Assembly: GCA_964016885.1 (NCBI GenBank)
Contig: OZ024741.1
Span: 365,366,001-365,430,000 of the forward strand
Source of the DNA: Eledone cirrhosa
Taxonomy: Eukaryota
Length of the DNA: 64,000 nt
Direction of reading: 5' to 3'
Shown: positions 1,324 through 58,026 of the stretch, piece by piece
Numbering within the stretch: the stretch's first letter is position 1
Layout of the letters: every line of letters begins with the position of its first letter
Program-made: the position numbers and the translations under genes
The notes under the pieces: generated by a model
The model's input: only the letters and a program-made list of their open reading frames with translations
The model's database searches: none
What the model was told of the DNA's origin: nothing

Positions 1324-1371
1324 TTTCGCTATTCATATATAGTTATGTAATAAACAACATAAGGCAATTAT

Positions 1372-1430
1372 TTCATTTACCAGTGGTTTCTTGAAAGCAA
1401 ACAAATTTTGCTTTCAATCATCAGAATGAA
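1372..1430 (-). ncRNA. Type I hammerhead ribozyme
   Basis: ttcatt CTGATGA ttgaaagcaaa..tttgctttcaa GAAAC cactg GTA aatgaa; perfect stem I and long stem II. Confidence 0.85.
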
Positions 1431-1655
1431 TACATCCTGAACTTCTTCTCTGCTCTCTACGCCTTACATCCACTACGATTTTTTTACCTTCTGAACTCAC
1501 TTTCTGTACTCTTATATTCTTTTTCTCCTCTATCTCCCCTTATATTTAAACCTTTTCCTATGTATTTATTTTCCCTATTCCCCCTACTTTATACCTTATC
1601 CTTTACATACCCACCTGTTTTAATTTTAGATATTTATTTCTGTGTGTGTGTGTGT

Positions 1656-1710
<55 letters not shown>

Positions 1711-1740
1711 GGGCATATGTGTATATATGTATATATATAT

Positions 1741-2392
1741 ACCGCCAGAGATTCGATTTTACTGATTTCCAATTATATTATTCTCCTAGATTTAATAATT
1801 AACCAATTAATTTAATTAGACAATTCTGTTGATTGGTTAATTATTTGTGTTTGTTTTATAACATCTAGTTGAGAGCTTATCATGATGATTAGCGGAAATT
1901 AAAATATTTCCTTTCGCTAGCATTTTGAATGACCCATCTAAAACCGGGGGTTATTTCCCTTGCCGGAATTAACACGTGATAACTATAGATGCGATTAGCA
2001 GCCATATGGAGCAGCAACATATAATTTATCACTCCGGTCCTAGGCAGAACGAAATACCTGTTGATAAACTGAATCCTCTGTTCGATCACCAATACCATGA
2101 GCTTGCCATTCACGTAAGTCTGGTATTTGATTTCGGATTCAAAGAAACACATTAAACTATTGTTTGTTTGATTTGTCCAGGTGTACTTTTCTCAACCTGA
2201 TTAGTTCTATCGTTACTTTGGTATATATTGTGTGTTAGTTTCCCCTACCACGATGTTCGATTTGTCAAGTTATTTAAACGTATGTTATTACTCTGAGGTC
2301 CTATCTTATCGAGTGCTTTGCTAACTCATCATTTCATATAAGTAGGCCGAATTTACTTGCAAACCGCCAGAGATTCGATTTTACTGATTTCC

Positions 2393-2398
<6 letters not shown>
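1741..2398 (+). mobile_element. Non-coding element with ~36-bp terminal direct repeat (unit ~622 nt) in (TA)n
   Basis: ACCGCCAGAGATTCGATTTTACTGATTTCCAATTATAT at 1741 and 2363; TA flanks. Confidence 0.6.
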
Positions 2399-2440
<42 letters not shown>

Positions 2441-2523
2441 ATGTATGTGTATATATAATTATATATATCTGTATGTATATGTATGTGTGTATATAATTGT
2501 ATTTTACATGCTTCTGTCGTATT

Positions 2524-2572
<49 letters not shown>

Positions 2573-3035
2573 TTATATTTGTGTGTGCGTATTTTTATTT
2601 AGGTGGTGACGTAACTTTTTGTAGATATGTGTATTTTTATATAATTGTTTATGTGTGTATATATATAATAGCCTCAGAAACGGCTTGATCTGTGCCGCCG
2701 CGGTCATACTTTTTCCTATATGTATATATATATATATATGTATATGTATGTATATGTATGTATATATGTGTGTATTTGTATGGTTGTGTGTGTGTATATA
2801 TATATATGTATATGTATATATGTATGTGTATGTATATGCATAATTACATACAGTGATTTAATGGTTATGATCATTTGCTTCAGGAACTTGTTGAGTGCTC
2901 TAAATCAGCTATAAACATTTATACCCTTTTCTAATTATTTATTTATTTATTATTTGTCGTATTCCCAACTATTTGTTTACCCCATTCACCTATTTATTTT
3001 TATATATATAATATTTATGTATTTTCTTATATATA

Positions 3036-3149
<114 letters not shown>

Positions 3150-3302
3150 GTATATATATATTTAAGAGTTAAACAAGGTTCAATGAATACATCTAAGAAT
3201 AAGTTTTACACACATACATGTGTGTGTATGTATTTATATATATGTGTGTGTATGTACGTGTGTATATATGTATGATTATGTGTATGTATATATATATAGA
3301 TA

Positions 3303-3369
<67 letters not shown>

Positions 3370-3678
3370 GAGTGTGTGTGTGTGTGTTTGTGTATTTGTG
3401 TGTAGGTGTATGTATGAATATCTTGATATATATATGTGTATGTATGTATATGTATGTGTATTTGTACGTATATGTATATGTGTGTGTATGTATGTATATA
3501 TATATATGTGTATATGTATGTATATATATGTGTATGTATATATGTGTGTGTATGTAATTGTGTGTGTGTGTGTGCATGTGTGTTTATTTTTCCTTTCCTT
3601 CTTCCTTTTCCAGCCTTACTTTCATATAGATTATATTTTTGCTTTTAAAATCCAATGTCAATAAATACATCAGGATTT

Positions 3679-3737
3679 TTCATTCTGATGATTGAAAGCA
3701 AAATTTGTTTGCTTTCAAGAAACCATTGGTAAATGAA
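3679..3737 (+). ncRNA. Type I hammerhead ribozyme (same family as 1372-1430)
   Basis: ttcatt CTGATGA ttgaaagcaaaatttgtttgctttcaa GAAAC cattg GTA aatgaa. Confidence 0.85.
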
Positions 3738-3834
3738 ATAATTGCCCCATGTTGTTTATTACATAACTATTAAGCTCTGTAACCTACATAGAGCACTCTT
3801 TTTTCCTAGACCTTTCCGACAGAATTACTTCATT

Positions 3835-3890
<56 letters not shown>

Positions 3891-3895
3891 TATAT

Positions 3896-4250
3896 TATAT
3901 TAACATTAAGCGAGATAAAACAGAATTTATCGGAGTATAAACAAGATTGACAAAAAAATATTCTATATAAACTTGCTGATATATAGATCTCCCTACCATG
4001 GGAAGAATTCTTATGTATAATTTCTTGGACAATTTCTCTTAGATTTTGAAAAATTAAAAACCCGTGAAGTGTATGGCGGATTCTTCAATTATTGGTGTAT
4101 CCCTTCAGAATTCTTCCCCTTATGAAACTATGGTAGATATCTCTCTATATATTATTGTCTATCTTGTTTATACTCCCATCTTGTTTTTTACTTGCTTAAT
4201 TTTAATATATAATATTGCTTCTCGGATAAATTCTTCTCATTGAGATGTTT
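3896..4250. mobile_element. Old fold-back element with diverged inverted termini
   Basis: GGAGTATAAACAAGATTGACAA (~3932) vs TTGTCTATCTTGTTTATACTCC (~4154); TTAAGCGAG vs CTTGCTTAA. Confidence 0.5.
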
Positions 4251-4374
4251 AATTATTTGTGACTATTTCACTTTTAATTATATATATCCATTTACTATCT
4301 TTACATACATACATATACACATACATACATACAGACATGCATACACACACACACATACATACACACATAATCAT

Positions 4375-4642
4375 TAATATTGATTTCTGATTTAGTCACG
4401 AAGGCATTCATTTTTTAGGAGAAGGGCAAAGTCAATTATATCGACTGAGGTACTTTACATATACTTTTGATTTATTAATCTCGGAAGGATGAAAGGCAAA
4501 GTTGACCTCGGCTGAATTTGAAATCAGGACCCTGCTTAAGTCAACTTTTCTTTTAATCCTTACGGATTCGATAAAACGAAGTACCAGTACGCACTTGTGT
4601 CGATTTAATCGACTTCCCTTCTCCAAAATTGTTGGGTTTATG
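4375..4642. mobile_element. Two degenerate SINE fragments in opposite orientation
   Basis: GGATGAAAGGCAAAGTTGACCTCGGC (minus-sense core) followed by TCCTTACGGATTCGATAAAACGAAGTACCAG (plus-sense core). Confidence 0.6.
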
Positions 4643-4923: not shown

Positions 4924-5113
4924 GTGTGTGTGTGTGTAAAAGGTAAACAGAAATAACAACATATATTTATATATAAATCAGCATATAGAGAAAAGTACAG
5001 AAAGAGATATAATCAAAACCCACCAGAGTGACGAACCTATTGCCTACGGAAGGAATGGTGAATATAAATCAATAACAAGATTATATGAAAGTATACTAAC
5101 CATTCGATTATGA

Positions 5114-5297
5114 TAATTGTTTCTACTTTTGGCACAAGGCCAGCAATTATTCCAGTGTATTACTGGTACTTTATTTTATCGACCTCGTAAGGATGAAAAG
5201 CAAAGTTAACCTCGGCGGGATTTGAACTCAGATCATAAAGGGCCGTAAATCTTTGCTGCAAGCATGGCATCCGAACTTCTACCAATACTGCCAATCC
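5114..5297 (-). mobile_element. tRNA-derived SINE (octopus-type)
   Basis: Reverse complement of the family at 11721, with B-box GAGTTCAAATCC and the conserved core. Confidence 0.85.
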
Positions 5298-5492
5298 AAC
5301 ACCCGGACATGCTCAAATAAGTGTATGTTTCGCTATAATAAGTGAAGAATCCATATTGTGCATGTAGCTAATCGGCGGGTGCCTAGCAGTATGATCAACA
5401 CTTAAAAAAAAAGTTTATGAGATAACTAAGTGGAAAGATATGTGCATTTTATAGCCCATGGTGGTCAAACTGAAGTAATAGTAGTAAACATT

Positions 5493-5591: not shown

Positions 5592-5732
5592 GTATTTTAT
5601 GTCATCCTTTTTTATTTCCTACTTCTACAAATAAAACTGCCACACACTCACCATACCTCACCCATACATTTACCATTCCCCCTTTATATATATATAAATA
5701 CATATATATATATATAATATATATATATACAT

Positions 5733-5785
<53 letters not shown>

Positions 5786-5788
<3 letters not shown>

Positions 5789-6191
5789 TTTTAATATAGA
5801 TGAGATTCGTCCAATTGATGCGCGAGGCCGCGTGACCGCACGCAGCGAACTGCGAATGGCGCTGTTAGCGTCTGACGCCTCGTCGGTCGCACCCGGGAGT
5901 CGGGTTACAAAACGCGCGTGCGGCGTTCGACGCCGTCATCGTTCCGTCTTCCCGCGCGGTCCAAACAGACCGCGTCGACACAGTCGGCCTTCGCGTTGGT
6001 CGCGGCGCAAATATTAGACTGAGACCGGCGACGCGTCAGACGCCGGCCGCGCCGTTCGCAGTTTGGTGCGTGCGGTCCCGCGGCGTCGCGCATCAATTCG
6101 ACGAATCTCATCTATATTAAAACTGTTATTCTCTGCTGTGTATTGAGTACCTTACTTACTGTGGTTATCTCCGATTCAACCCGGAATAACG
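5786..6191 (+). mobile_element. Fold-back element in (TA)n with a GC-rich rod-like hairpin
   Basis: Arms 5788-5890 and 6020-6123 are complementary; termini and 3' tail shared with 19011-19168. Confidence 0.8.
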
Positions 6192-6200
6192 TGTATATAT

Positions 6201-6311
<111 letters not shown>

Positions 6312-6413
6312 CATATATATATATACATATACATATATATATATATACATATATATGTATGTATCAATACAATAATATTAATAAATCGAAATTATCTTTA
6401 TAAAACCATATTT

Positions 6414-6474
6414 ATTTTATTATATATATTTCAGGAGTACCAACATTTTTTGGTACGCCCTCATCAGATAAAAT
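6414..6474 (-). ncRNA. Type I hammerhead ribozyme
   Basis: attttat CTGATGA gggcgtacc...ggtactcct GAAA tatata TA ataaaat; palindromic stem III. Confidence 0.75.
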
Positions 6475-6602
6475 ACAAAAGTTGTTTTACAGATAGTGAC
6501 ATATTCAAAACTAGAACTTAGTGTTTTGAGTTCTGTTTGCATAGAACTCAAAACGCTAAGTTCTAGTTTTAAATATGTCAGTATCTGTAAAACAACTCTT
6601 GT

Positions 6603-6664
6603 ATTTTATCTGATGAGGGCGTACCAAAAATTGTTAGTTACCCTTGAAATATATATAATAAAAT
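6603..6664 (+). ncRNA. Type I hammerhead ribozyme
   Basis: attttat CTGATGA gggcgtacc...accctt GAAA tatata TA ataaaat. Confidence 0.75.
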
Positions 6665-6829
6665 AAATATGGTTTTATAAAGATAGTTTCCATTTATTAA
6701 TATTATTGATATTATACTCCAGAATAAATTTGTAGAGTGCTTCTAATCTATTAGAAACTAAATTTGTTGAATAACCAACAAATTAAATAAGTCATTGCTT
6801 ATATATGTATGTGTATATATATATATATA

Positions 6830-7366
6830 TGAGGGTGTTAAAGTTTGCTTGAAGCATTGTGAAATGTGTAAAATACGTAGTTTAGAAAGCCACAACAATG
6901 CAGAGGGAAATCTCGAGGTAGGAAGTGAATGATAGATAGGAGAAATAGGAGAAAGTGAAAATTGAGAGAGACAGAGATGAAAACAAAACAAAGGTAGAAG
7001 GGTTACCGTAGTGGAGATTTAATCCCAATATTTCGGGCTCACGCCCATCAACGGGGGAAAGTTCCAAAAGGGGGGGAACAGGCTAAGCCGGAGAAAGTTG
7101 TGATGTCGTTAAAACAGGAATGCCCTGTTTTAACGACATCACAACTTTCTCTGGCTTAGCCTGTTCCCCCCCTTTTGGAACTTTCCCCCGTTGATGGGCG
7201 TGAGCCCGAAATATTGGGATTAAATCTCCACTACGGTAACCCTTCTACCTTTGTTTTGTTTTCATCTTTGTCTCTCTCAATTTTCACTTTCTCCTATTTC
7301 TCCTATCTATCATTCACTTCCTACCTCGAGATTTCCCTCTGCATTGTTGTGGCTTTCTAAACTACG

Positions 7367-7370
<4 letters not shown>
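6830..7370 (-). mobile_element. Near-perfect ~245-bp-arm palindromic element plus unpaired tail, in (TA)n
   Basis: 6872-7117 is the reverse complement of 7124-7370 (identical 61-aa ORFs on both strands in the track); short copy at 61522-61655. Confidence 0.85.
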
Positions 7371-9118
<1,748 letters not shown>

Positions 9119-11340: not shown

Positions 11341-11720
11341 GATATGTATTAGTATAGAATGGTGGTGTCGCACATGTTAAAGAAATGGTGCAGAAAGAAT
11401 AATGTTATTTACAAACAGGGTTTATGAAGTGAAAAGAAAAAAGAACAAAGAAAAAAAGTGACTTAATATAGAGCATAAAAAGTCAATATGAAAGAAAAAA
11501 TAATGTTATTTACAGGCAGAGTTCTTGAAGTTAAGCAGATCAAAATGTGTTAATATAGCAAGGATGCTAAGTTGATCTATGGTGGAGGCAAATGGTGGAT
11601 TGAGGTTTGATGTGATTTCCCTTTTTAGAATAATCGACTCTTTCTCCCTGTTTTCATATATATATATATATCCTAACTCGTGTGCTTCCTCTCCACATTT
11701 TATTATTATTATTATTCACT

Positions 11721-11900
11721 GGATTGGTAGTATCGGTAGAGGGTCGGGCGCCATGCTTTCCAGCATAGTTACGTCCCTTTACGATCTGAGTTCAAATCCC
11801 GCCGAGGTTGACTTTGCCTTTCATCCTTACGGGGTCGATAAAATAAAGTACCAGTAATGCACTGGGTAATTGCTGGCCTTGTGCCTAAAGTAGAAACAAT
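11721..11900 (+). mobile_element. tRNA-derived SINE nested in the PLE 5' region, with TSD
   Basis: A-box-like TGGTAGTATCGGTAG, B-box GAGTTCAAATCC, core GCCTTTCATCCTTACGGGGTCGATAAAATAAAGTACCAG; TSD TATTATTATTATTCACT on both sides. Confidence 0.9.
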
Positions 11901-13499
11901 TATTATTATTATTCACTACCACACGAGATACAAAAAATGCCTACTAAAACAAAAACAGACTCCACTCTCATCAGCATTAATCAAGAGATACTCCAAGAAC
12001 TACAAAAAATTAACTCTAATTTGTCAATACTCACCAACAAACTTAACTCTACAAGTGAAGAAACAATCCCCAAATACACATCCTATTAAATCAACGACAA
12101 TATCAATAACTTATGTGAAACAATAAAAACACAACTGAATAACAACACAAATCCTATTCAAACGAACGAAAATACACATGACACTAATACACCTACACTT
12201 TACCAAATAAAAAACAAATTAATACCACAATGGTACACATCTCTTAAAAACAGGAAATTCCCCTTTTGGTTGGAAGATGATACAAAACAATAACAAAGCG
12301 GAGATCTATGAAAAATAGATTAACTCATCCACATTAATCATTCCCCGAAAACTACAAATTAAATCCATGCCAAACGAACCAGAAACACAAAGACGCCTCA
12401 GGGAAAGAATGGCACTTGATAACATAAAAACCGAAATTGAACTCCTTAAATTGAGAGCCCAAGCAAATGAAGATAGGATCAAATCAATCGACGATGAGAT
12501 TAATCAAGCAATTATCAAGAAAACCAAAGACACCACCCTAGAAAATATTTCAAAATTATGGTTAGAGGACTGTAATAAGGAAGAATTAAAATCTTTTCAA
12601 CGCTGGGAAAAAAGACGAAACCTGGTTCTCTAACTAGGAAACACTTTTCCCAAAAGAACACACATCCAAGAACCCCTTCATTAAAACCATAATAACAAGA
12701 AAACTCAATCAACACCCAAACACCACACAACAACCAACAACAACAAAAAAAAAAACAATACCTCCCCACATACCAACAAAAGAAGGCATCACCTCGCCCC
12801 TACCTCCTACATCCTCCACACAACTACCACACCACACGGTAGCAACAAATATAGTAATAGAGAAACATCAGCTACAAGATAGACACTACAACTTCTCTAC
12901 CACCAGGAGAAACCATAGAACCCCCCCACACTTACAACCCCCCCTAACATCCCCACACAACAAACCCACAACCATCATTACTTCCAACATAGAACCCAAA
13001 ATACATAACTACCACACATGTCACACAGCGCCTCACAACCACACACAGCTATAAGGAAACACTAATCTACCCTCCCCCACTAACCACATCCTACTACAAC
13101 AACACCAGCAGCGGACAATGCAACCACACGAGACACCCTAACCACTACAACACCATATAACAGCAACATCAGGACTCAATATAACCACACAAGGCAACCC
13201 TACTACAACTACCACCAAGTCTACACACCCTACAACAACAGCAGTTCTCAGTACAACCAACAACCACCACAACTTCACACCCTATAACCACGTCCATCAA
13301 ATCTACACACCCTACAACAACATCAGCAGGGTTCAATACAACCACATGATACAACCTAAACTCAACAACCACCACAGCTACAAACCATCTAACAACAACA
13401 GCATGGGCCAATACAACTATAAGAGACATCCAAACTTCAACAGCCATCACAAATTCCGTAATCATTTTTTAGACACAGGATAACAAGATAAAACAAAAC

Positions 13500-15460: not shown

Positions 15461-16325
15461 ATTTCATGTAAACACAACTTTACATGACACCACCATTCTA
15501 CACTAATACATATTACTATCATTTAATAATGCATAAAAATGCTGAAACCGGTAATAGACAATTATTAAATATATAAATAGATAAATAAATGCCATTGTTA
15601 ATTAATAAATAAATCAACTAATACCTTAACACTTCACACAAAGTAAAACATTTCGTTTTAATCATTTTCTATCCCAGAAAAAAGAGAGAAATAAAACAGG
15701 AAACAAATATATTTTTCAACCTAATAATTGTCTCTTTCTTCCTGTTTTCATATATATATATATACACCCTAACTCGTGTGCTTCCTCTCCACATTTTATT
15801 ATTATTATTATACATATATATATATATACGGGATAACAAGTTATCGTTATAGGCAATCCACTTACAGGTAGTCCAGTTAGAATACTCCGTGTTGTGGATG
15901 GTATTAACGTATGGCTTAGTTTGACTCAACAAGACGCTTCCATAGTGTTGCAGCGAGTTCACGGTGATTTTTATATAGGTTATACTTGGAGTAATAATAT
16001 TTCAAGAGATAATAGTAACATGGTTTCCTGTACAATAAGGGCTTTATTCACAGTGCTGACAATTGTTTCTTTGATCTGGTAGGTCTAGAGTTCGCTAATC
16101 GCTAGATGTTGCGTCAATTGAACTCCAATACTTTGTTTATAACCACTTAATTCATCAGAGCGAGCGAATGTGAGGATAATATACAAGGCATGGCTTTTAT
16201 ATATATATATTCCTTTATTATAGCTAAGTCGTCAGTCTTGATACTCTGGAGTTTCTCCTGCACCCTCAATATTGAGTACACTTTTCTCATGTGCGTCAAC
16301 TGCATACGGATATATAAATATATAA

Positions 16326-16428
16326 TAAAGAAGGTGTGGTAAGATACCAATTGGACCAGACTACTCGATACTTAGGGTAGTAAAGTGGGTAATAGGAAAA
16401 GAGTCAGGACCCCACGGCCCTGAGTCTT
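16326..16428 (-). mobile_element. Short fold-back element (family of 18793-18984)
   Basis: Shares the CCTATTACCCACT..TATCGAGTA..TTACCACAC tail. Confidence 0.65.
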
Positions 16429-17590: not shown

Positions 17591-18446
<856 letters not shown>

Positions 18447-18792: not shown

Positions 18793-18984
18793 AGGAAAAT
18801 GTTCAAGACCCCGACGGCAGAGCTCAAGCCGTTTTGACGGCTATTTCCGGAAAGAGCCGTGCAAACGGCTTGAGCTCTGCCGTCGGGGTCTTGGACATTT
18901 TCCTATTACCCACTCTACTACCCTAAGTATTGAATACTCTGGTGCGTTAGGGTCCATCTGGTTCCTTACCACACTTCCTTCGTT
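18793..18984 (+). mobile_element. Short fold-back element in (TA)n
   Basis: Hairpin 18793-18904 centred on TTTCCGGAAA plus ~80-nt tail; relatives at 16326, 39172, 41995 and 42189. Confidence 0.85.
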
Positions 18985-19010: not shown

Positions 19011-19167
19011 AAGTTTTAATATAGATGAGATTCTACAGGACTAGAACTGTTTCATTCTTTAGAAAGTTCTAGTCCTGTAGAATCTCATCTATATTAAAAC
19101 TTGTATACTCTGCTATGTATTGAGTACCTTACTTACTGTGGTTACCTCCGATTAAATCCGGAATAAC

Positions 19168-19168
<1 letters not shown>
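19011..19168 (+). mobile_element. Short fold-back element (same termini and tail as 5786-6191)
   Basis: AAGTTTTAATATAGATGAGATTC..GAATCTCATCTATATTAAAAC plus tail ending CCGGAATAACG. Confidence 0.85.
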
Positions 19169-20657: not shown

Positions 20658-24515
<3,858 letters not shown>

Positions 24516-25634: not shown

Positions 25635-28216
25635 TTGATTGGCAGCATGCTAACTAAAGACTACCTACCTATATCACTCAAGAACATCCCAACCCCATCC
25701 AGGACTACTTATGAGAAATTACTGATAGCTAGTGTCAACTCCTTCATTAAGCGTATTAGATGGCGCACTTTCCACTTCGATACGAGAAATAAGAAATCAA
25801 CCACGGTGTCCCCCAATAATAAATTCGGTTTTAAAACCTATAGGAGCCCGCCCCATAATTCCATGCTAGATGGATTTGAGAATGACCTCCTATCACTAGT
25901 AAGGAATATTAAGTTTAAAAAACCCCATGGGAATAGTAACAAATTCCGGATGAAACTGGACACCTTAGTTAAGGGCTTTAACGATAAAAGAGATATCCTG
26001 GTCACCTCGGATAAAACCAGAAATATTTATAGCTTAAATTATGATACGTATCGCATGTTTATATACAATGAATTAAATAGAAACTATAAAAAGACAACAA
26101 GCGCAAACCTAGATGAAATTAATAAGGAAGCATGCGCCATAGTGTATAAACTAGGCCTGGAAAAGTATACCCAACCATATACCCCTAGGCAACCCAGGTT
26201 CACCCTTAAAGGCCATAAGGCTGACTTCATTAGTAAACCCTCGGTTAGATTAATTAGCCCATCGAAGTCAGATATAGTGATTATCAGTAAGAAAACTTTA
26301 GACGGCATTATACCTACCATCAGGAGGAAAATAAATCTAGAGCTATGGGAGAATACGGAAGAGGTTTTGAAATGGTTCTCAAGCCTTAACAACCATAAAT
26401 CCCTTAAATTTATACAATTCGACATCGATGCGTACTACACCTCAATCTCCCCCATACTCCTTAATAAGGCCCTAATCATGGCCATGCAGAAAACGACCTC
26501 ACTAGGTCTCAAATTGATGTCATTCTTGCGGCCCGGAAAACGATAATCACATTTGAGGACGAATTGTGGACCCGCAAGAATACGCCCAATAAACTTCGAC
26601 ATCACAATGGGATCTAGTTACTCTGCACAAGTAACGGACCTGGTAGGATTGTACCTCTTAAAGGAGTTACATGAGACATTACCGCACTTGAAGGGCGGCT
26701 TATATCGTAATGACGCCCTCCTCACTCTCGAGTATAAAAAGTGCAATATAGAAAGAACTAGGAAACAGTTACGTAGGTTCTTTAAAAGCTTTAATCTAAG
26801 TATTACCATAGATGCAAATGACAAAACAGTAAACTTCCTAGACGCCACCCTTGACCTAGAAACTAAAACATTTGCACCCTACCATAAACCTAATGATAGA
26901 CTAACATATGTAAACGCCAGCTCCAACCACCCCAAATCAGTCCTAAACGCTATTCCCAAGGGGGTCTCTAATAGAATTAGCAGACTGTCCTGTAATGAGA
27001 GTATCTTCAACTCCAATGCAGAGTATTATGACAAGGCCCTAGCAGAATCTGGTTACGGGAATAGATTATCATATATACATCAGGACTCCCAAACCATGAG
27101 TGGGAAACCTACCAACATAATCACACATAGTATGGCCACAAAGCCTAACCAACTTAGAGGCAAGAATAATAGTAAGAACCCTAATGGCGCTAACCCAGCT
27201 AAATGTAAACCACGTAGAGACAATACTAGAGTCCCTCACCACAACTCTACAACAACAAATGATCATGACATGAATATAAACCATCCGGGCTTAAGCAAAA
27301 CAGACAACGCCACTAACGTTAATAACGGAACCCTACAAAATAGTACGCACAGTAACGAGACTCACCCCACAGATAAGAAAAAATAGAAGAAGGAAAAACA
27401 TGTATTTTAACCCCCCTTTTAACTCTGAGGTCCTCACTAACCTCCCCAGAGTATTCTTCTCATTATTAAGAAAAACTTCCCACCAGGCAATAGATATCGC
27501 AACATAATTAACAAAAACGTGATTAAATTATCCTATTCGGCCACACCTAACCTCGCATCACACCTAGCACGCACGAACATTAGGAAAACTGAAGAAGGTT
27601 TCGAAGCAATTAAAATGGCAGTTAACCACCAGCAACCGACTACACTGGAAAAAGGGCAACATAATAGCATCACTGAGCCATCTAATGATATAGAGGCGCC
27701 TAGTGATAATGCTAGTAACGAAAGTTAGGGAGGTACGCTAACTGATCGAACCCGCAGTTGCAATTGTAGGCGGAGTAGTAATTGTCCCTAAAGGGGGATT
27801 GCCTCATGAAAAACATCGTATATGCATGTGACGTAACCACGCACAACTCTACCAAAACATATATAGGATCAACGTCCAATACATTTAAAACTAGATTTAA
27901 CGCGCATATGAACACATTTAGATACGATAGACATAAGAATGCCACCTCACTGGCGGGATACATCTCCTTTTTAAAAAATAATAGTACCCCATACAAACTT
28001 TTTTGGAGGAAGCTTACTAGATCCACGCCATACCGATCGCAGAGCGGGAGTTGTGACCTGTGTTTACTGGAATGCTATGCCATAATACACTCTAAACTGA
28101 ACCTGCTTAACAGGAAATCGGAAATTTTCTCCTCTTGCCAACACAAAATCCTGAGTTCCTTCTTCTATTTAAACCTAGCACATAGACGTAACATATATTA
28201 CGCAACCCCCACCTAG
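25635..28216 (+). pseudogene. Naiad-like PLE polyprotein (RT plus C-terminal GIY-YIG), frameshifted
   Basis: SLKNIPTP, SDKTRNIY, QFDIDAYY, MGSSYSAQVTDLVG, GLYRND, CNCRRSSNCP, IVY..YIGST, CDLCLLE. Confidence 0.9.
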
Positions 28217-30468: not shown

Positions 30469-31857
<1,389 letters not shown>

Positions 31858-33312: not shown

Positions 33313-33344
<32 letters not shown>

Positions 33345-33347
33345 TAT

Positions 33348-34600
33348 AAGCAAAGAGTTATTTTAATTTGCTGGTTATTCCACAAATTTATTTATAACAG
33401 ATAGATACGAAGCACTCTACAAGTTTCTTCTGGTGTATAATATCAATAATATTAATAAATGGAAACTATCTTTATAAAACCATATTTATTTTATTATATA
33501 TATATTTCAAGGGTACCAAGATTGTGGCACGCACTCATCAGATAAAATACAAAAGTTGTATTACAGATATTGACATATTCAAAAACAAGAACTTATCGTT
33601 TTAAGTTTTGTTTGAATAGTGAAAAATAAATTCAAATCTTAGGATGAATATGTTAATGAGGATAACGTAAAGTTGAAAAAGATCGTTATATTTAGACGCT
33701 AAGTAATTTAAAATAACTATTAGGATTATTTTTTAAGGGAAGAAGAGAAAGCGGTTATTATTAATATTAGGGTGTAAGAAAATTTAAGGAAAGAATATAA
33801 GTAAAAAGTATATTAGAGTTAGAAATAGACTATTATTATTAATATATAATTGTATGGATCGTATTTGTGGTAGTGTAAAGAGAGTGAAATAATTATATTT
33901 ATTTATTTAATTATATAATTATATATTTTGGGAATATCTATAATATAATATGAGAATTATAAATGTGTTGAAGTGGTAGAATATTTATTTAAAAAAGTGA
34001 GAGATACTACTAATTATTGGGGCTATTCTAATAGTGTATTTTAATATTATAGAGATAATATTTATAAGTATATTTTATGACGAATTAGGGTTGTAAGTAT
34101 ATTTTATTTTATTATATTACAACAGGTTATTTATGTAAATAATTTTGGTTGTTTTTATTAATAGATAGATACTTTAAATAATTTTTATATGTGAAGGGTT
34201 ACGATGAATTTCGTGTTTATATTTTCAATATACCTTTAAAGAAAGAGGAAGTAGTTCTATTTTATAATAGAAGATTATTTTGTATATTCAATAGTTGCAT
34301 CAAGATATTTATACATTTACGAAATTATACAAAAAAAAATGTTAATATTTATTTAAAGTTTAGTTGTTAGTTAGAAAAAATGTGTAAGCGTGTTACATTA
34401 TAAAGTAAAAGATAACTCCAATATTTCTTAGTTAAAATAGTTAAGTTATATTTACCGTTTATTCTAGAATTTACTTTAAAAAAATATTCTAATTAAGATA
34501 TATGTAAAAAAATTATATATTATTTTATATATGATTTTATAGTATCATATATTACATATTTTCTAAGATAAAAATTCCTTTTTATAAGTATTTAGATGTT
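33348..34600 (-). mobile_element. Highly decayed Naiad-like PLE 3' end with HHR (33488-33548)
   Basis: pLTR and tail homologous to 6550-6800; attttat CTGATGA..GAAA tatata..ataaaat; only faint coding similarity upstream. Confidence 0.6.
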
Positions 34601-37179: not shown

Positions 37180-38040
37180 TACATGGTGGCTGCCAACTCG
37201 TTTTCGAGTACGGCCACTACTTTATATCCATGTAGGAGAACCCCTACCGATGCGCTGAAGGAGTGTGGCTTTTTAGTCCAGCCAGCGACTTGAAAACTCT
37301 GGTACAAACACAACACTTGTGACAATTATTGACAACTAGTGCTGGGCCCATGGTGCCATGTGACCCAAGGTGTCGTGTGAGATCACTACTCGACCTGCAT
37401 ACCCTTCCACAAACATTACATGTCGTCGTCTGATGAACACTTATAGCTCCACAGGTGCCTGCTTCCCTGTTCTTGTGCACTCTCAGGTGACTCTTTAGAC
37501 CTGCCATGCTCAGAAAAACCCTATTACAGGTCTCACATGTCAGGTCAGGCCGTCTGTCAGTGCCTTCGGGAAGGCCAACATGGATTCCTTTCTGGACATC
37601 TCTTTTTAGTGTCGCGTGCCTTCTTCTTGTTTCCTCAAATAGACTCTTGCCACCAGCCACCGCTTTCCTTCAATGCGATCGGTCGCTAGCGCATGCTTCT
37701 CAGTGCTTACAAGGGATGTTACTTTTCTTGAGCGCCCCCTTGATGCAGTCCTTAAAACGCATCTTGGGTTTGCTCGCGTTCCTTTTTCCCATTTAGAGCT
37801 CGCCATAAAGCAGCTGCTTCGGCATTCGCTTGTCACTCATCCGTACAAGATGGCCTGTCCAGCGCAGCTGATGTTTCAAAATCAAGGACTCGACACTATC
37901 ACAGCCACTTCTGGCCAGAACCTCGACGTCACTGACAAACATTTGCCAAGTTATGCCGAAGATCCGACGTAAGCAGTACTGGTGGAACCTCTCAAGTCGC
38001 TTCATCTGTCTACGGTAGACCACCCACGTCTCACAAGCAT
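37180..38040 (-). mobile_element. 3' fragment of an RTE-clade LINE with C-terminal C2H2 fingers
   Basis: YACETW..LERFHQYCLRRI..QLRWTGHLVRM..MPKQLLYGEL; three CxxC-x12-H fingers in ORF 37244-37660. Confidence 0.88.
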
Positions 38041-39061: not shown

Positions 39062-39312
<251 letters not shown>

Positions 39313-39630
39313 ATATATATATATATATATAATGGCTGAGGTTTTATGATGAATTTAAACTTAAATGTTACATCTATATAGGAGGACAGGAACACCGACC
39401 TGCTGCATATCGCTGATAGTACGATTCATCTTGCATCATTTAAGTCTGTGTGTACGTATGTCTCTGTTAATGTACTGTAACTTAGCGCTTCGGCGGTAGA
39501 TGTTTGATACGTTGACTATGAGACTTAGTAAAATAAACACTAGAGTCGATATGAGTGACTAAATCCTTTCACAATTTTGTCACAGCATGATCAGCGACTA
39601 ATGATTAAATCTAATAAAAAAAAAAATAAT

Positions 39631-39812
39631 AATTGTTTCTACTTTAGGCACAAGGCCAGCAATTACCCAGTGCCTTACTGGTACTTTATTTTATCGACCC
39701 CGTAAGGATGAAAGACAAAGTCAACCTCGGCAGGATTTGAACTCAGATCGTAAAGGGACGTAACTATGCTGGAAAGCATGGCGTCCGACCCTCTACCGAT
39801 ACTGCCAATCCA
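39631..39812 (-). mobile_element. tRNA-derived SINE
   Basis: Near-identical reverse complement of 11721-11900. Confidence 0.9.
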
Positions 39813-41994: not shown

Positions 41995-42147
41995 AGGAAA
42001 ATGTTCAAGACCCCGACGGCAGAGCTCAAGTCAGGCTGTTTCGACGTCAGGGTCTTGATCATTTTCCTATTACTCTCTCTACTGCCCTACGTATTGGAGT
42101 ACTCTGGTGCATTATGGTCCACCTGGTTCCTTACCACACTTGCTTCG

Positions 42148-42190
<43 letters not shown>

Positions 42191-42397
42191 ACAAAGAGCG
42201 TGTGGTAAGATATCAGGTGGACCATAATGCACCAGAGTATTTGAGGTCGTAAAGTGGTTAATAGAAAAAACAGTCAGGACTCCGACGGCTGAACTCCGGC
42301 CGTTTCGACAGCTAGATCCGAACTAAGCCCGGGCTTAGTTCGGATATAGCTGTCGAAACGGCCTGAGCTCAGCCGTCGGGATCCTGACTCTCTTCCT
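41995..42397. mobile_element. Two fold-back elements of the 18793 family, tail-to-tail around (TA)n
   Basis: 41995-42149 (+) and 42189-42397 (-); the second has a hairpin centred on CCCGGG at 42328. Confidence 0.8.
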
Positions 42398-46094: not shown

Positions 46095-46097
<3 letters not shown>

Positions 46098-46769
46098 GAA
46101 AGATCTTCAGCACCGTATGCCTACATAGATGCACACATATATATATATGTACGTATGGGTTTACCGAACATTCATTATAATGCTCGGTTTGTATGTAAAC
46201 AAACAGCCCGATTTATTAGCCGTACAGTGGTCCGCAAACATCGGTGCTCTTTTGTTCAAAACTGACAAAGGAACGATGAACTAGTTTCTTGTTTATTAGC
46301 TGTCATCAGCACCGAATATATATATGTCTGCATGTATGTATATATACATACTACTGTACGTCTGTATACATATATGTATGTACTTATATTTAAGTAACAG
46401 CCGTACTAAGAGTGGGAATTGAAATTTCGTTTCATTTTTTTCGTTTATCGTTTTCGGTGCATCCGGCCGATTAACCCATTCGATATGAAAATTGCGCTAC
46501 TCAGCCGTTAATATGCATAAGGTAAGTATATACGTTCAACAATCTGGCTGACGATAGCTAATAAGCTTGAAACTAGTACAGCGTTGAACAAATGAGCAAC
46601 GATGGTTGCTAGACACTACGGCTTAATACGGGATATTTGTTTACAAACACATCGAGCATTATAATAAATGTTCGGTGAATCCATCCGTACATATATATAT
46701 ATGTGTGCATGTATGTATATATACATACTACTCTACGTCTGTATACATATATGTATGTACGTGTACATA

Positions 46770-46770
<1 letters not shown>
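46095..46770. mobile_element. Diverged fold-back copy of the 30469 family with HHRs in both arms
   Basis: HHR cores at 46273-46315(-) and ~46545-46582(+, CTGACGA tagctaataagctt GAAAC ta GTA). Confidence 0.75.
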
Positions 46771-46839
<69 letters not shown>

Positions 46840-46844
<5 letters not shown>

Positions 46845-49122
46845 ATACTTGGGGTGGATCATATTTGTGTAACAATATTGCCAGAATTAATAACACAACA
46901 CACTCACTGTTTGGTTGGTTTTCGCTTCTGTGTCTTTTATATCGGTTAATTTAATTTATTCGGTCCTCAATGTTACCATTGATTGACCAACGGTCAAAAA
47001 TACAGATATAATATAGACACAACCACATATATATAGTTTAACAAACTTCTTTCGTTGCAACTCTGCAACATCGTCAGTGGTGCTATTATGTTTCCTCCTG
47101 TTGTATTGTATGCCTACGCCAACTTCATTTAGTCTGTTTATTTATTCATTTTTTTGTCTTCTCTCCGCATGCGTTTGCGTGTGTGTATAGTGTTTGATGT
47201 GTGTTCGTGTTTGGCTTACTGTGTATTGGTTATTGTATTCTATCTTAGTTTACTAGTGTTTTATGTGTTTGTTCTTATTGTGCTTGTGTATGTATTTATT
47301 TATTTATACTTCTCTTAGGTCAGTATTTTTTGTTTGGGTGTTGTTGTTATTCCATTCATTTTTTTCTGTTTAGCCTTGGCCTTCTAAGTTCTATTTTTAT
47401 GGTATAGTGGGAAAGGAGACTCAAAAATATCCTTGATGAGAGCTCCATAGACCTCATATGTACTCACGTTACGTAGACGACATCAATATAGTAATAAGGA
47501 CATCCCCACAAGAGAGTACTAACAAGTTTGATTTAGAACGTAGTACAATGGAAAGCATCCAGCAGATAGCTAATTCCATACACCAGAGTATATCTGTAAC
47601 TATCGACTACCCTTCCAAACACCCTAACAATAGACTACCTGTATTAAACACGGAACTCTGGATTAACACTATAGACGAGAGAGCCCAAATTTTCCACTCA
47701 CACTACGCTAAACCCATGGCCTCCAAAAAACTCAGCAATGTCCAATTGTGCTAAGTTTAATATTCTGATCGCAGACTTAGTACGAGTGATGAAGAACGTG
47801 TCCTGCATGTGCGACCCAACAGAAATGGAAAGACATATCCAACACTTCATCAACCGCATGCAGTTCTCTGGCTACAACCAAAGAGACAGAATCAGAGTAT
47901 ACGAAGGAGCCACGGAGAACTATAAGACCCTCATAGAACTGGACATGAAAGTAATTTGCCCATTATACAGGAGCAAATCATGGAATAGCTTAGATAGGAC
48001 TAAACATAAGATAGGTAAGGCCACCTCATGGTACGAGAACCGGAGATACCAGAGTGTCATGTTCGTAGACGCTACCCCTGGAGGGAAATTAGCTAACCAG
48101 TGTAGAAAGGCCCTGAGAAAGACCCACTTAAAGATTAAGGTGGTAGAAAAGCCAGGAACCACCATAAAATTCCTGATCAACAAAACTTAGCCTTTTCAGA
48201 AAACTCACTGTACTAATAGGAAATGTATTATATGTAAATAAACCCCCGGATAATCTGTAAAACTAGAAACGTAGTCTATAGCATAAGATGTACAGAGGGT
48301 ACTTACAGAAACATGACAACAACATACATAGGCGAGACAGCTCGTAGCATAGGTGAAAGGATAGACCAACACTCGGGGAAACTAAAAGGACGAAAAAACG
48401 GTTCAGTACTATACGAACATGCGAGACAACAACACGACGGTAACATAGACAACATAGAAATTAGAATAATATCTAAACATAGAAATGACCCTGCAGATAG
48501 GCATATCAGAGAGACAAGTGAAATAGAACTTAGAAGGCCAAGGCTAAACAGAAAAAAATGAATGGAATAACAACACCCAAACAAAAACACTGACATAAGA
48601 GAAGCATAAATAAATAAATACATACACTTGCACAATAACAACAAATACATATAAACACACACTAGTAAACTAAGATAGAATACAATAACCAATACACAGT
48701 CACCCAAACACGAACACACATCAAACACTATACACACATGCAAACGCATGCGCAGAGAAGACAAAAAAAAAATAAATAAACAGACTAAATAAAGATGGCG
48801 TAGGCATACAATACAACAGGAGGAAACATAATAGCACCACTGACGATATTGCAGATGTGCAACGAAAGAACTTTGTTAAACTATATATATGTGTTTGTGT
48901 CTATATTATATCTGTATTTTTTACCGTTGGTCAGTCAATGGTAACATTGAGGACCGAATAAATTAAATTAACCGATATAAAAGACACAGAGGCGAAAACC
49001 AACCAAACAGTGAGTGTGTTCTGTTATTAATTCTGGCAATATTGTTACACAGATATGACCCTCCCCAAGTATAACAATATTTGTTTCGACACACGATTTC
49101 ATATAAAAACCTCGCAAAACTA
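46840..49122 (+). mobile_element. 5'-truncated PLE (third lineage) with inverted 5' pLTR (46840-47395)
   Basis: YSRYVDDINIV, LPVLNTELW, HYAKPMASK, FVDATPGG, YIGETARS; HHRs at 48832-48878(+) and 47039-47085(-). Confidence 0.9.
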
Positions 49123-49844: not shown

Positions 49845-50757
49845 GGTAAAAGATCGGGACGTTATATCCGTAGTAAGTAGAGCACTCAGCCGAAAGGACA
49901 AGTTCCGTATAGAGTTAGATGCACAACAAATTAGCAAACCATATTGGCGGACCTGCGTTTCACGTGACGGAACGTCTACAAGATACTTACACTTTCAGCA
50001 ATAGATAGCTTACGAGACACTGCTCCATTTCCGTATGGCCAGGAAAGGGTTAGAACTTTCCATTGAATGGAGAAATTCCCGTCTGAATCGTTGAGTAACG
50101 ATATGTGGCATGCCAGCCAGCTTCGTGGATAACCTCTAATCAGAGTATCCGAAGATCGTCTGTTCGTTAAGGAAGTTCTTTAAACCGGCCGGCGATACAT
50201 CTACATACGTTTTAGCCTTGTGTTGTTGGTTCGTTCGTGTAGATGTAACTTCAGCCTAACAGACGACTGTAGATGTGTTACACAGATGTTGAAATGCATG
50301 GTTATGGCCTTCTGCAAGGGAACCCGGGTGGGGGAGAGCTGTAGGGATTGATGGTGATGTGGGTAGTCATATATTTAGCACATTAATATCCGAGTTCCAC
50401 CCTCTGTCTATTAATGATAGATCTGTATTTATGTCCTATAGGGAAGTGCTTGTCGAGGAGTGCCATGTATTTCTTACCTAGATTAGTTCTAATTCAAGCG
50501 ATATGGGTGGGTAGAACCAACGGTAGAGGGTTGGACGCCATGCTTTCTAACGTAGTTACGTTCCTTTACGGTCTGAGTTCAAATCACGTCGAGGTTAACT
50601 TTGCCTTTCATCCTTACGGGGTCGATAAAATAAAGTACCAGTAATGCACTGGATAATTGCTGGCATTGTGACAAAAGTAGAAACAATTATTATCTTTCTT
50701 TCTACAGGTAGTGTGATGAGGAGGAGAGTAAGACATTTTATCGGAGAAGCCGAAACT
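49845..50757 (-). mobile_element. Decayed Naiad-like PLE 3' fragment interrupted by a SINE
   Basis: Manual translation GFSDKMSY.., IRTNLGKKYMALLDKHFPIGHKYRSIINR, AEVTS..KTYV, QWKVL..PYGNG..KLSIAE, matching the 55433 ORF. Confidence 0.75.
50521..50693 (+). mobile_element. tRNA-derived SINE
   Basis: Same family as 11721. Confidence 0.88.
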
Positions 50758-50800: not shown

Positions 50801-53800
50801 CTTGAAAAACTTAATACAGATACATCTTGTATAATGCATGAATTAGACATTGAGAATAAAACACAACCCTTCATGCCTAGGAAACCCAAGATCAATATGA
50901 AAGATCACAAAAGAAACTTTGAAAATGATTTACCAGTTAGATTAATTGCACCATCCAAATCTGACCTGGGAAAACTTAGTAAAAATATTATAGACAGGGT
51001 AATACAACAAATTATAAACTTACCTAATTTATCTTACTTAAAATTATGGAAAGGCACTAGTGAGGTTATTGATTGGTTTAAAGAAATGACATATAACTAA
51101 TAATAAGTTTATTCAGCTGGATATTGCTAACTACTATTCATCTATCACTCCTAATCTACTGAATAAGGCACTAAATTACGCATTTAAACATACTGACCTA
51201 ACTAGCAATGAAATGCACATTATATTATCGGCAAGGAAAACATTGATAGAATTTAATAACCAACTCTGGACTAGGGCAAATAGAAATAATAATTTCGACA
51301 TAACTATGGGATCATCAGACTCAGCTCAGGTAACGGACCTTGTGGGCCTATTTATAATTAATTCGCTACATAGAAAAATATCAGGTGTAACCGGAGATTT
51401 ATATCGTGATGACATGCTTTTACTTATAGAAGATAATAGCTGTGAACTAAATAGAAAAAGAAAACAAATTATGCAATTTTTTAATTACCTTAATCTAAAA
51501 ATAGAAATAGAGAATAACCATAGAATAGTCAATTTTCTTGATGTAACACTAAATCTCAACACATGTCTTCATTATCCATTTCACAAACTAAATGAGAACT
51601 TGAATTATGTCAACTTTAACTCTAATCCGCCCAGATTTTAAAAAAATACTATAGTGAACTCTGTTCAAGAACGAATTTCAAGAATTTCATCTAATAAAAA
51701 AATATTTGATGAAAAAGCGCAGTATTACAACGAAGCATTAGCTAGAGCTGGATATAGAAATAAAATTAAATACATCGATAATAATAATAATAAGCAAATT
51801 AACCAAAATAATAACAATTTCAATTACGGTAACAACTTTAACAACTATAATAGAAAACATTACAATAATTCCAAAAGCCGAAAAAGAAATCGAACTAGAA
51901 ATATATTATGGTTTGCTCCCCCTTTCTCACTAAATATTAAAACCCCTATTGCTAGACTATTCTTTAAAGCTCTTGACACACGCTTCCCTAGAACACATAA
52001 ATATCACTCAATTTTTAATTGACACACTATAAAATTAACTTACTCGTCCACCAAAAATTTAGCACAAATAATAATAGAATTAATAATAAGAATTTAAAAC
52101 CTAACCAAAATACCAATAATAACCCAAACAATATTCAATTAAATAACTGTAACTGTAGAAATAAATCTAACTGTCCGTTAAGTAACAACTGCTTAGCTAA
52201 AAATGTAGTGTACAATTGTAATGTTAAAACTAATTTAAATGCATTTAACTATGTTGGTTCCACCTCTACAGAATTTAAATTTCGCTTCAATAATCATAAG
52301 AATTCTTTCACAGATCCAAACAAAAAATCTTCAACTTCGCTATCTAGCCTACTATGGGACCTAAAACGAGATAATATTAAATATTCGATGAATTGGAATA
52401 TTATTTCAAAAGCTACTCCTTTTAATTCCTCTTCAGAAAATTGTGATCTTTGTATTGTAGAAATTTTCTTTATATTAAAGTCCAAAAATTCCCTTAATCT
52501 GAGGAACAATTTATTCAGTTGCTGCAGATATAGATTGAACTCAACGTTTAAATATAAATATAAATTTAAAATGTAGTATAATTAATTAAGTAATTTTAGT
52601 TAATATATAGAACCTGTCGATAATCCATTAGATTCCTTCACCTTTTTCTTTTTAAACTTTCTTCCTAAATATAAACATGGATATAATAAACTACTCTAAA
52701 ATGTCTATACTTCCAATGTATTAAATAAAATATACGTAGGATAAATTTCTATACTAAATATATAAAACATATTATTTTAACTTAAGATACTCTATAGTGT
52801 TTTAATGATATTTAATGCTTTGATATTTCTAGATTTCTTTTGACTATATAGTTGCATTTCCAAAATGTATTCCTTTGGTATTTTAAATTTATATTGTTAT
52901 GGTTATATTTACAAATTATAGTCCTTTGGTAATTTATTGATATTGGATTATCTCTATACAAATGCATATGTGTGTATTAACATGCATAGAAAGTGTTATA
53001 GATTTTTGTGTTTGTATATGTGTCTGTATATATACATGAGTGATGCATGAGGACGCACGCAAATATTTATTTATACATATGTATGTGTATATATATATGT
53101 GTATATATCTATGTGGTTGAGAGGTATGTTGCAGATGTGCATAATATTAAACACATGAATGGTAATCGTATATATGAGGACATGATTGTTAATCGTATAT
53201 ATTTGTATATATATACTGTGAAATTTTTATAACACAATGAGTGTATAGCAGTGATTAAGAGAAATCATTTACGTTTTGTATGGCTATATTGTTGGCTTGA
53301 GTAAACATAATTTCTATTTTCAGGACGTACGTATCTATATGTATGTATACTTGTATGTCTTTGCATAAAATACTAATCTCTATAGCAAGGGTACATTTTG
53401 AACTCAGATTTTGGTATATTGATCTCAAGTTTCTAAACTAAACATATGGTCATTATTGAACAATGTTTAATTTCTCATATTATATATCTATGTCCCATTC
53501 ATGAATATTGATACTTATATTTATATTTTTTATTATTCATTTCATATAAATTGTTAACTCAACTTAATATGACATGACGTAAAGTTGTCACTGTCCCCCT
53601 CTCTCTATATAGTATTTCTCTCTCTTGAGTTTCTCTTTCTGTTGCTTTCCTTTGTTTTTCTTATTCCTTCCTTTTCTTTCTTTCTAATTTCCTCCTATCT
53701 TTATTTATCTCTTTCTTTTCTCCATACATTTCTCTCTCTCTCCGATATTTCTCCAGGTTTTCTTGCTCTTTTCTTTCTCTCTCTCTGTCTTTGTTCTTTT

Positions 53801-54137
53801 CTCTTTCTTTCTCTCCGTCTTTTTCTAATTGTGCTTAACACTATGACTTATTATATAAGCAAATCACTATCCAGACAGCCTCCAAAAGTAATGGTTGTAT
53901 TTTAAAGGGTACGTCAAACCTATTTGTAAAACTGTTATATATTGTATTTTGGCTGATGAAGGCATACCATAATTTAATGTGGTATCCCTGAAATATGTAT
54001 AATGAAATAAATATGGTTTTATAAATATAGTTTCCATTTATTAATATCGTATATCTACTCCAAAAATTTGTCGAGGGCTTTATATCAGTTATAAAAATAT
54101 TTACTTGTTGTATCCCAACAACTTTAAATAGAACTTT

Positions 54138-54140
<3 letters not shown>
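50800..54140 (+). mobile_element. 5'-truncated Naiad-like PLE (RT and GIY-YIG remnants 50834-52576; HHR 53945-54008)
   Basis: QLDIANYY, MGSSDSAQVTDLVG, LYRDD, CNCRNKSNCPL, VVY..YVGST, CDLC; CTGATGA aggcatacca..tggtatccct GAAA. Confidence 0.9.
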
Positions 54141-54931: not shown

Positions 54932-55339
54932 CCCTCCCCCACTTGCGACCGTTGGACTTGAAAACAGTCGAGAATATATAGTTTTCTCGTCTGTGTAAAT
55001 GAAGTGATTAATCTCATTTGCATATGAAGCTGCATAAGATATGTTGTCTCTCCTCTGTTTTGTCTCTTCTGTTACTCCACGGAACAGCGTTTGGGTTATG
55101 TTATCGCTGTGGCCCCGGATGGACCATCAGTACCGTTGTTAGGGGTCGAAACTGCCCAAATCCATCTCAACGGCCGATGACCAGAAAGTGTTGTGTCTTT
55201 CCTTTGTATTTTTAATTTAAAAAAATAAACTTTTAAGACTGCCCATTAAAAAATTGTTTTTTGTTTTGTTTTGTTTCAGTTCGTTGTCTTGTCCTTTCTG
55301 CGTTAATTTTGTTAAGTTTATTTATATTCTCAGCTCACA

Positions 55340-57762: not shown

Positions 57763-58026
57763 TTATATATAATATATATTAGGTATTAAAATAACAATGA
57801 AAATAAAACAACAAAGTCAAGTTACTTTACCTATTTATATAATTGTTTTACGATCGTTTCGGAGGGTCGATCATATTGATATATTGTCTGATCTATAGTA
57901 GTTATATAACTGTATACTATCAGATCTCACATGTAGGTTCGATCAGACTGTCTTCTTCGCACCTTACCACCAGAGGTAGACCACACTGAAAAATAAAAAA
58001 TATATATAAATATAGATAGATAGATA

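Follow-up and report, generated by a model that had tools for sequence, protein, structure and literature searches.

Insertions of Penelope-like elements (PLEs) are described in Craig 2021 (PMC8557442) as an inverted 5'-truncated copy together with a one-sided tail of 30-40 bp, and the same paper reports a preference for (TA)n among the Hydra and Naiad PLEs, both of which are present in Octopus. Frangieh 2024 (PMC11167929) ties the tail to two reverse-transcription start sites, and the account in Arkhipova 2013 (PMC3846280) includes self-priming and the capture of unrelated sequence between pLTRs. Penelope-like families are reported as recently active in O. vulgaris (PMC13282606). Non-LTR retrozymes, as defined in bioRxiv 10.64898/2026.07.22.740005, are made of units in tandem, every one of them carrying a type I hammerhead.

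The window, that is, the whole 64-kb stretch of DNA analysed, consists of AT-rich animal DNA in which microsatellites, remnants of retroelements, and fold-backs abound. The element considered here is made up of a shell and a GC-rich interior. On its left lies a (TA)n microsatellite (5685-5786), the likely target, which hides any target-site duplication; the perfect inverted copy of a 22-bp shell arm (5787-5808, minus strand) runs into it at the outer end. On the right, the direct copy of the arm (6103-6124, plus strand) is followed by a one-sided tail of 67 nt (6125-6191, plus strand), which carries a small terminal hairpin (6170-6185), and then by a (TA)n-rich flank (6192-6347). Enclosed between the shell arms are a left GC-rich arm (5809-5891, minus strand), which is an inverted copy of 6020-6102, a GC-rich loop of 128 nt (5892-6019, plus strand), and the right GC-rich arm itself (6020-6102, plus strand).

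The limits of the two parts can be read from a sister element (19012-19168, plus strand), whose perfect 37-bp arms (19012-19048 and 19065-19101) enclose a loop of 16 nt and are followed by the same tail. The two elements have 5786-5808 (23 of 23 positions) and 6103-6191 (92% over 89 nt) in common, and the stem of the sister is AT-rich and unrelated to that of the target, just as an earlier reading made from the sequence only had stated. Both are flanked by (TA)n runs on each side. Since the sister shares exactly these two stretches, the junctions fall at 5808/5809 and 6102/6103, and each is the exact mirror of the other.

The shell is most likely the end of a PLE, and the PLE-dependent shell proposed in the sequence-only reading looks sound. 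It has an inverted 5'-truncated copy beside a direct copy, a tail on one side only beyond the inverted repeat (67 nt, compared with the 30-40 nt described), a (TA)n target, and a variant of a Hydra-type terminal motif (CTCT..ATHGARYAC; 6131-6150, plus strand) that begins 6 nt past the arm end. The target has no hammerhead core; the sister carries a GAAAC half-core at the expected distance on its inverted side, 43 nt from the motif, and the remainder would lie beyond the truncation. An autonomous PLE with exactly this shell at its end was not found, the motif of the shell is a variant rather than the exact Hydra motif, and the shell's own motifs gave no match in the supplement of Craig 2021.

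The terminal motif can be followed in that supplement, where six 9-mers gave 12 matches. Three of these lie within GCTCT-stem-loop-AT(A/T)GAGCAC near record ends, namely at two 3' ends in the Hydra section and at the start of Hydra-1_Ajap; the Hydra-1_Obim record ends ~40 nt after its hammerhead and lacks the motif. The strict form occurs three times in the window against 0.00 expected (3774-3796, 57694-57716, and, on the minus strand, 61934-61956), and variants lie at 6131, 19108, 18913, 39220 (minus strand), and ~6715. A relaxed pattern gives seven matches against 0.32 expected, including the target, the sister, and two of the five copies of a stub family (family B), although four of the seven are matches by construction.

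Its spacing can be compared as well. Two window copies of the motif stand 50-51 nt behind the hammerhead GAAA, as against 47 and 52 nt at the two Hydra 3' ends; in families A and B and in the element at 1339 the motif starts 4-9 nt past the end of the inverted arm; and a GAAAC half-core precedes it by ~45 nt in the family-B copy at 42188, much as in the sister. The motif thus recurs in the tails of several stub families at steady distances to the arm end, the hammerhead GAAA, and (TA)n. We regard it as a candidate cis signal for PLE mobilisation or enzyme recognition. No paper on it turned up in the literature searched, and the main text of Craig 2021 uses neither 'hairpin' nor 'stem-loop'.

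The plan of the target, in which (TA)n runs enclose an inverted arm, a variable middle, a direct arm, and a tail on one side only, recurs in several families of the window, namely family B, a further fold-back family (family C), the element at 1339-3850, and two PLE remnants (23460-24450 and 46841-49120). The element at 1339-3850 (plus strand) serves as a control within the window, with an inverted arm (1339-1440), an AT-rich interior of 2.2 kb, a hammerhead core at 3685, the motif at 3774, and a tail; its interior is framed by hammerhead-bearing inverted arms, has no similarity to them, and is possibly a second captured interior. Family B consists of five stubs with one tail and differing hairpin apices (18794-18983, 41996-42148, and, on the minus strand, 42188-42396, 39174-39312, and 16310-16428), one of which abuts the sister across a short (TA)n run. 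Family C (6361-6800) adjoins the target; each arm of this fold-back bears a hammerhead core, the tail is ~100 nt long, and there are relatives at 33320-33607, 53920-54140, and 60216-60455. The PLE remnants at 23460-24450 and 46841-49120 have long inverted arms, CTGACGA-type hammerhead cores, and a ~45-nt tail without the motif, and probably belong to another clade.

Coding remnants of a suitable enzyme lie in the same window. An ORF remnant at 55316-56380 (plus strand) resembles Hydra-1_Obim in the RT thumb and endonuclease region, by an alignment compared by eye with a shared run of 12 residues, and ~1.2 kb downstream of it a hammerhead core, the motif at 57694, and a tail occupy 57595-57765 (plus strand). 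This remnant is likely the kind of helper that the target would need, and its resemblance to Hydra-1_Obim suggests an octopus-like host; a PDB sequence search with the Hydra-like ORF returned nothing. Broken Hydra-like RT and GIY-YIG remnants number three in all (25635-28216, 51090-52576, and 55316-56380), and there is a weak GIY-YIG match at 27782, an RT ORF at 13978, and an LTR-type pol at 21633-23078.

Several other features were recorded. The region of the LTR-type pol holds a broken LTR-retrotransposon pol at 20658-23314 (minus strand) with RT, RNase H, and integrase zinc-binding matches. There are also a 141-aa open stretch with C2H2 zinc fingers at 37244-37669 (minus strand), which may be part of a gene or the end of a LINE ORF, and a tandem array of a 23-bp unit in about nine near-identical copies (62728-62939). 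A dispersed repeat of ~190 bp, which we take to be SINE-like, is present in five copies that are 85-96% alike (5107-5298, 11720-11913, 39619-39812, 50521-50704, and 62194-62386), and a short GC hairpin followed by CTAG (9027-9066) presumably resembles the 3' end of a Helitron.

A related organism (organism A) is represented by contigs from three runs (X1, X2, and X3) of one sample. The tail is hugely abundant there, with 2,908, 2,919, and 3,130 contigs aligned per run and a summed depth of up to 1.7 million on the tail, and 17, 24, and 20 contigs, respectively, stop at 6103 and then continue with the stem of the sister, which is the usual family form in organism A. The GC-rich right arm is covered by a single contig of depth 4,409 (X1) or 3,479 (X3) together with one or two contigs of depth 8-12, and in X1 a chain of contigs of similar high depth spans the loop back to 5931. 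Beyond 6102, the high-depth and the low-depth contigs alike continue with sequence unlike the shell. Shell and GC-rich part are therefore separable, each with a different partner in organism A, in keeping with the sequence-only reading, to which the cargo appeared swappable.

Depth is not copy number, but a ratio of ~280-450 on one path suggests a homogeneous repeat in many copies. Since it is found at high depth in the same DNA sample as the shell, in contigs that run on past 6102, the GC-rich part is probably a host repeat and neither a contaminant nor a MITE ending at 6102. It may derive from an array such as an rDNA spacer, from a young retroelement's UTR, or from a family with a PLE tail; the homogeneous depth of ~3,500-4,500 along one path suggests a fragment of a tandem array or rDNA spacer. 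None of the 24 organism A pieces listed, of ~8,970, bridges 6102/6103. The left arm is uncovered in all three runs, which is weak evidence, since the high-depth contig of the right arm is likewise missing from run X2.

We put at roughly 0.62 the probability that the element is a dead chimeric insertion made by a Hydra-type PLE, in which the shell was joined to a fragment of a GC-rich repeat, folded back in a self-primed step, and then decayed. Given the observed anatomy, symmetric junctions, terminal motif, and separate partners in organism A, we infer every enzymatic step as follows. The PLE enzyme would nick (TA)n and cDNA would start within the tail of the shell (compare Frangieh 2024, PMC11167929). 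At 6103, 22 nt past the tail, the enzyme would switch template to RNA of the separate, homogeneous, multi-copy GC-rich repeat and would copy ~210 nt of it, from 6102 back to 5892. The cDNA end would then fold back near 6020, prime itself, copy back to the tail boundary, and join (TA)n. Such fold-back copying to the tail boundary would make both arms and both junctions in one event; the arms would mutate independently from then on, and their point mutations would now read as G-U pairs and spaced mismatches.

The interior is indeed as rich in GC and CpG as had been noted. The stretch 5806-6108 has 65% GC and 58 CpG, with an observed/expected ratio of 1.79 (whole 64-kb window, 34% and 0.87), and is the richest in GC of any 300-nt stretch in the window. 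The arms (5787-5891 and 6020-6124) pair over 105 bp without an indel, and the outer 25 bp, 22 of shell and three of cargo, are perfect, in agreement with the description of ~100-nt arms with mismatches and G-U pairs behind a perfect outer end. Thirteen columns are not Watson-Crick (five G-U, one A-C, two C-C, two G-G, two U-C, and one G-A), and seven of them are transversion-type mismatches.

As RNA, the plus strand has a predicted minimum free energy of -248.1 kcal/mol (z -15.97; 0 of 100 shuffles as good), and it is more stable by 14 kcal/mol than the minus strand (-234.3 kcal/mol, z -15.0). Both small hairpins that had been named in the loop are present (5921-5935 and 5955-5974), but the 128-nt loop alone does not fold beyond its own shuffles (z -1.47, with 24 of 300 as good, and 116 of 300 on the minus strand). 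Transcription, if any, would give long double-stranded RNA, as it would for many fold-backs of the window, and nothing points to selection for its formation.

Polarisation of the mismatches against organism A covers 32 columns only (6041-6072) of the 83 in the cargo arm, at positions away from contig ends. Within these, the main contig of organism A differs from the window's right arm at four of seven non-Watson-Crick sites and at one of 25 Watson-Crick sites, besides one insertion (p = 0.004), and the mismatches therefore look private to this copy. At the seven sites, organism A has the letter that pairs with the left arm in three cases, the same letter as the right arm in three, and a third letter in one, which fits two copies of one template mutating separately; each of the seven is readable as a change that only one window arm underwent. 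Of the six polarised private changes, three lie in each arm. The polarised G-U pairs derive from C>T changes. Since none of the six is A>G, nothing indicates that an RNA intermediate was edited, which speaks against the proposed ADAR substrate. Probably, the mismatches are later decay.

Arm divergence in the target is 12.4%, above that of 13 of the 14 other fold-backs measured in the window, which range from 0 to 15% and contain the mismatch classes of the target (32 G-U, 41 A-C, and 81 transversion columns in 2,562). Long fold-backs with arm divergence of 1% to 15% served as controls (6864-7378, 8026-8397, 17593-18415, 30858-31752, 444-1225, and 46095-46771). The eight true mismatches of the target are more evenly spaced than random (P = 0.019 and 0.008 in two post hoc tests), and G-U outnumbers A-C by 5:1 (P = 0.11; under the window's spectrum, 0.024 one-sided and 0.094 two-sided). 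Taken together, spacing and G-U excess have a P of ~0.0008, a post hoc value before allowing for the choice among ~15 fold-backs and two strands; all these tests concern an element that was picked for such features. The remark that the arms pair with spaced mismatches and G-U pairs thus stands in so far as the pattern is jointly unusual, but the sites are not conserved in organism A. Even spacing could also be obtained through survival bias against perfect GC-rich palindromes.

CpG decay was considered as the main cause of the mismatches and was not leaned on. CpG transitions account for four of the six polarised changes, yet the whole arm shows no significant enrichment (9 of 41 vs 4 of 42, p = 0.14), and octopus transposons are reported as scarcely methylated (PMC9476566).

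A second explanation deserves to be kept in mind, although we consider it unlikely: the GC-rich hairpin may be a mobile, non-autonomous module, comparable to a SINE body, that rides on and swaps the tails of Hydra-type PLEs. Its two diverged arms would have existed beforehand, a template jump would have added the tail of shell A, and fold-back would have made only the perfect outer 22 bp. The contrast between a shell arm with 0 differences in 22 columns and a cargo arm with 13 in 83 (16%; p = 0.065) suits a hairpin older than the shell, and the regular spacing of the mismatches and the variable interiors behind a fixed tail in family B and the 1339-3850 element agree with such a module. So would a tail of its own, and the GC-rich part may carry one of PLE type elsewhere: the high-depth contig has CTCT 8 nt past 6102, and in X3 a 28-nt consensus of loose ends has, immediately after it, a stem of 5 bp closing a loop of 4 nt, which is the layout of the terminal motif at its usual distance from the arm end. 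The combination of CTCT and stem-loop occurs at ~0.1% of window positions; it was joined from two contigs, post hoc, and the low-depth contig has no CTCT past 6102. Against the module, too, are the lack of a left-arm contig or strand-change joint among the pieces listed from the three runs and the pairing letter that organism A has at two of three checkable true mismatches. No Pol III-type ancestor was detected, as Rfam gave no match of tRNA, 5S, or 7SL type up to E = 10.

One may go further and picture a GC-rich hairpin RNA in hundreds of near-identical copies that parasitises Hydra-type PLEs by swapping short 3' tails, whose small terminal motif would be conserved between these stubs and the Hydra elements of coral and sea cucumber, with the rod kept imperfect by selection. 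We hold this bolder version to be quite doubtful. If the GC-rich part were a tail-swapping module, it would be a SINE-like parasite of PLEs, a PLE version of the SINE-body/LINE-tail system, and would provide a minimal cis signal for mobilising PLEs.

It is improbable that the element carries, or has been made into, a structured RNA under host selection, be it a pri-miRNA, a hairpin-RNA gene, or a dedicated ADAR substrate. The very stable rod, its better fold on the plus strand, the G-U excess, and the regular spacing are what would recommend it, but organism A does not conserve the mismatch sites, none of the polarised changes is A>G, the loop does not fold beyond chance, and the setting is repeat debris with many other fold-backs. 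Comparison with one outgroup over 32 columns gave no conserved or covarying stem of the sort expected of a pri-miRNA or hairpin RNA. Rfam returned nothing at the gathering score and only sub-threshold matches, mostly driven by (TA)n, ARAGORN found no tRNA genes, and neither a ribozyme core nor a long ORF was found in the element, so the selected, structured RNA cargo favoured in the sequence-only reading finds no support. Two likenesses were dropped on the way. A T-arm-like reading of the hairpin at 5921-5935 has too short a loop and fits no tRNA model, and a stretch of 13 nt in the left arm that seemed to resemble 18S rRNA has no Rfam support and depends on a private change.

It is very improbable that the GC-rich part is a MITE with terminal inverted repeats of its own that inserted later into an empty shell. 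The symmetric junctions, with a CG at each that is readable as a 2-bp duplication, would suit it. However, the high-depth and low-depth contigs of organism A both run past 6102 with related sequence, which means that 6102 is not an element end with variable flanks, and the 46-nt inner stem and loop of the sister are replaced rather than interrupted. A secondary MITE insertion, which the sequence-only reading had named as an outcome that would refute it, is thus not what these contigs suggest, as the source continues beyond the junction.

Helentrons and Helitron2-type elements have terminal and subterminal inverted repeats and a 3' stem-loop, and the shell could be a non-autonomous DNA element of this kind whose interior was captured in rolling-circle copying. 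The chances of this are similarly slim. Its inverted repeat is terminal at one end and subterminal at the other, with a small hairpin near the end, but the flanks are (TA)n rather than TT, the motif is of Hydra type, and the same layout is present in hammerhead-bearing elements of the window.

Foreign sources were sought in several collections, using scans with exact motifs, which miss diverged relatives, and blastn. Tail motifs gave no match in viral, GTDB, or metagenome contigs; cargo motifs gave one chance match, in a 105-kb viral contig, and none elsewhere among the viral, metagenome, and GTDB collections; and a 21-mer of the shell had four exact matches in viral contigs, within one AT-rich viral stretch lacking tail and hairpin, which we take as chance. 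By blastn there were no phage records and one plasmid match at E = 0.4, so that these scans gave no real match in the viral, metagenome, GTDB, phage, or plasmid collections, and six element motifs of 14-17 nt were absent from the main text of the papers searched. An integrated viroid-like or Obelisk-like RNA, foreign DNA, or an assembly contaminant is the least credible origin of all: the composition is far from that of the surroundings and the fold is rod-like, but the sequence is a high-depth repeat within the shell's own DNA sample, which also speaks against a captured foreign sequence, the arms are inverted copies of one sequence with neither ribozyme core nor long ORF, and 13 substitutions without indels would be unlike a read-chimera artefact.

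We return to the probable dead chimeric PLE insertion and to how it compares with known systems. With the Hydra-clade EN+ PLE insertions of Craig 2021 (PMC8557442) it shares the inverted arm, direct arm, one-sided tail, and (TA)n flanks, as well as a terminal motif like that near three Hydra consensus ends, and Hydra-like ORF remnants lie in the same window. Unlike Hydra PLEs, the target has no ORF and no full hammerhead, which Hydra elements possess, and the copy stops 22 nt before the tail; unlike the insertions described in that paper, its tail is 67 nt long rather than 30-40, and its interior is not pLTR sequence.

The Penelope case in Adineta vaga, as presented in Arkhipova 2013 (PMC3846280), is similar in that short ends frame an unrelated interior, with a fold-back junction and with the same ends around unrelated spacers. 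The target differs from that case in keeping only ~90 nt of the end, in having the captured piece doubled in a stem, and in showing no readable target-site duplication. MRC1 and its relatives, the non-autonomous PLE derivatives of Craig 2021, and the animal non-LTR retrozymes of bioRxiv 10.64898/2026.07.22.740005 resemble the target in having no coding capacity and in a 3' end likely shared with an autonomous partner. The target is not a retrozyme because it is a single unit with no tandem units and no pair of hammerheads, and the hybrid is known here as a single copy.

The resemblance to RNA replicons is one of outline. Viroids, HDV-like RNAs, and Obelisks are RNAs of ~300 nt that are GC-rich and rod-like, with mismatches and G-U pairs, and the target, at ~300 nt, is GC-rich with a predicted rod of just this appearance. 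It differs from them in being a linear DNA insert whose arms are copies of each other, with no sign of circularity and with none of the self-cleaving ribozymes or conserved ORFs by which they are recognised, and its mismatches are not conserved in organism A. The researcher should keep in mind that decayed GC-rich fold-backs can resemble viroid rods. Seen beside these systems, the element would be a tidy case of known PLE behaviour, with its fold-back, its tail, and its captured unrelated sequence. Of greater use is a by-product, the short terminal motif common to Hydra consensus ends and several stub families.
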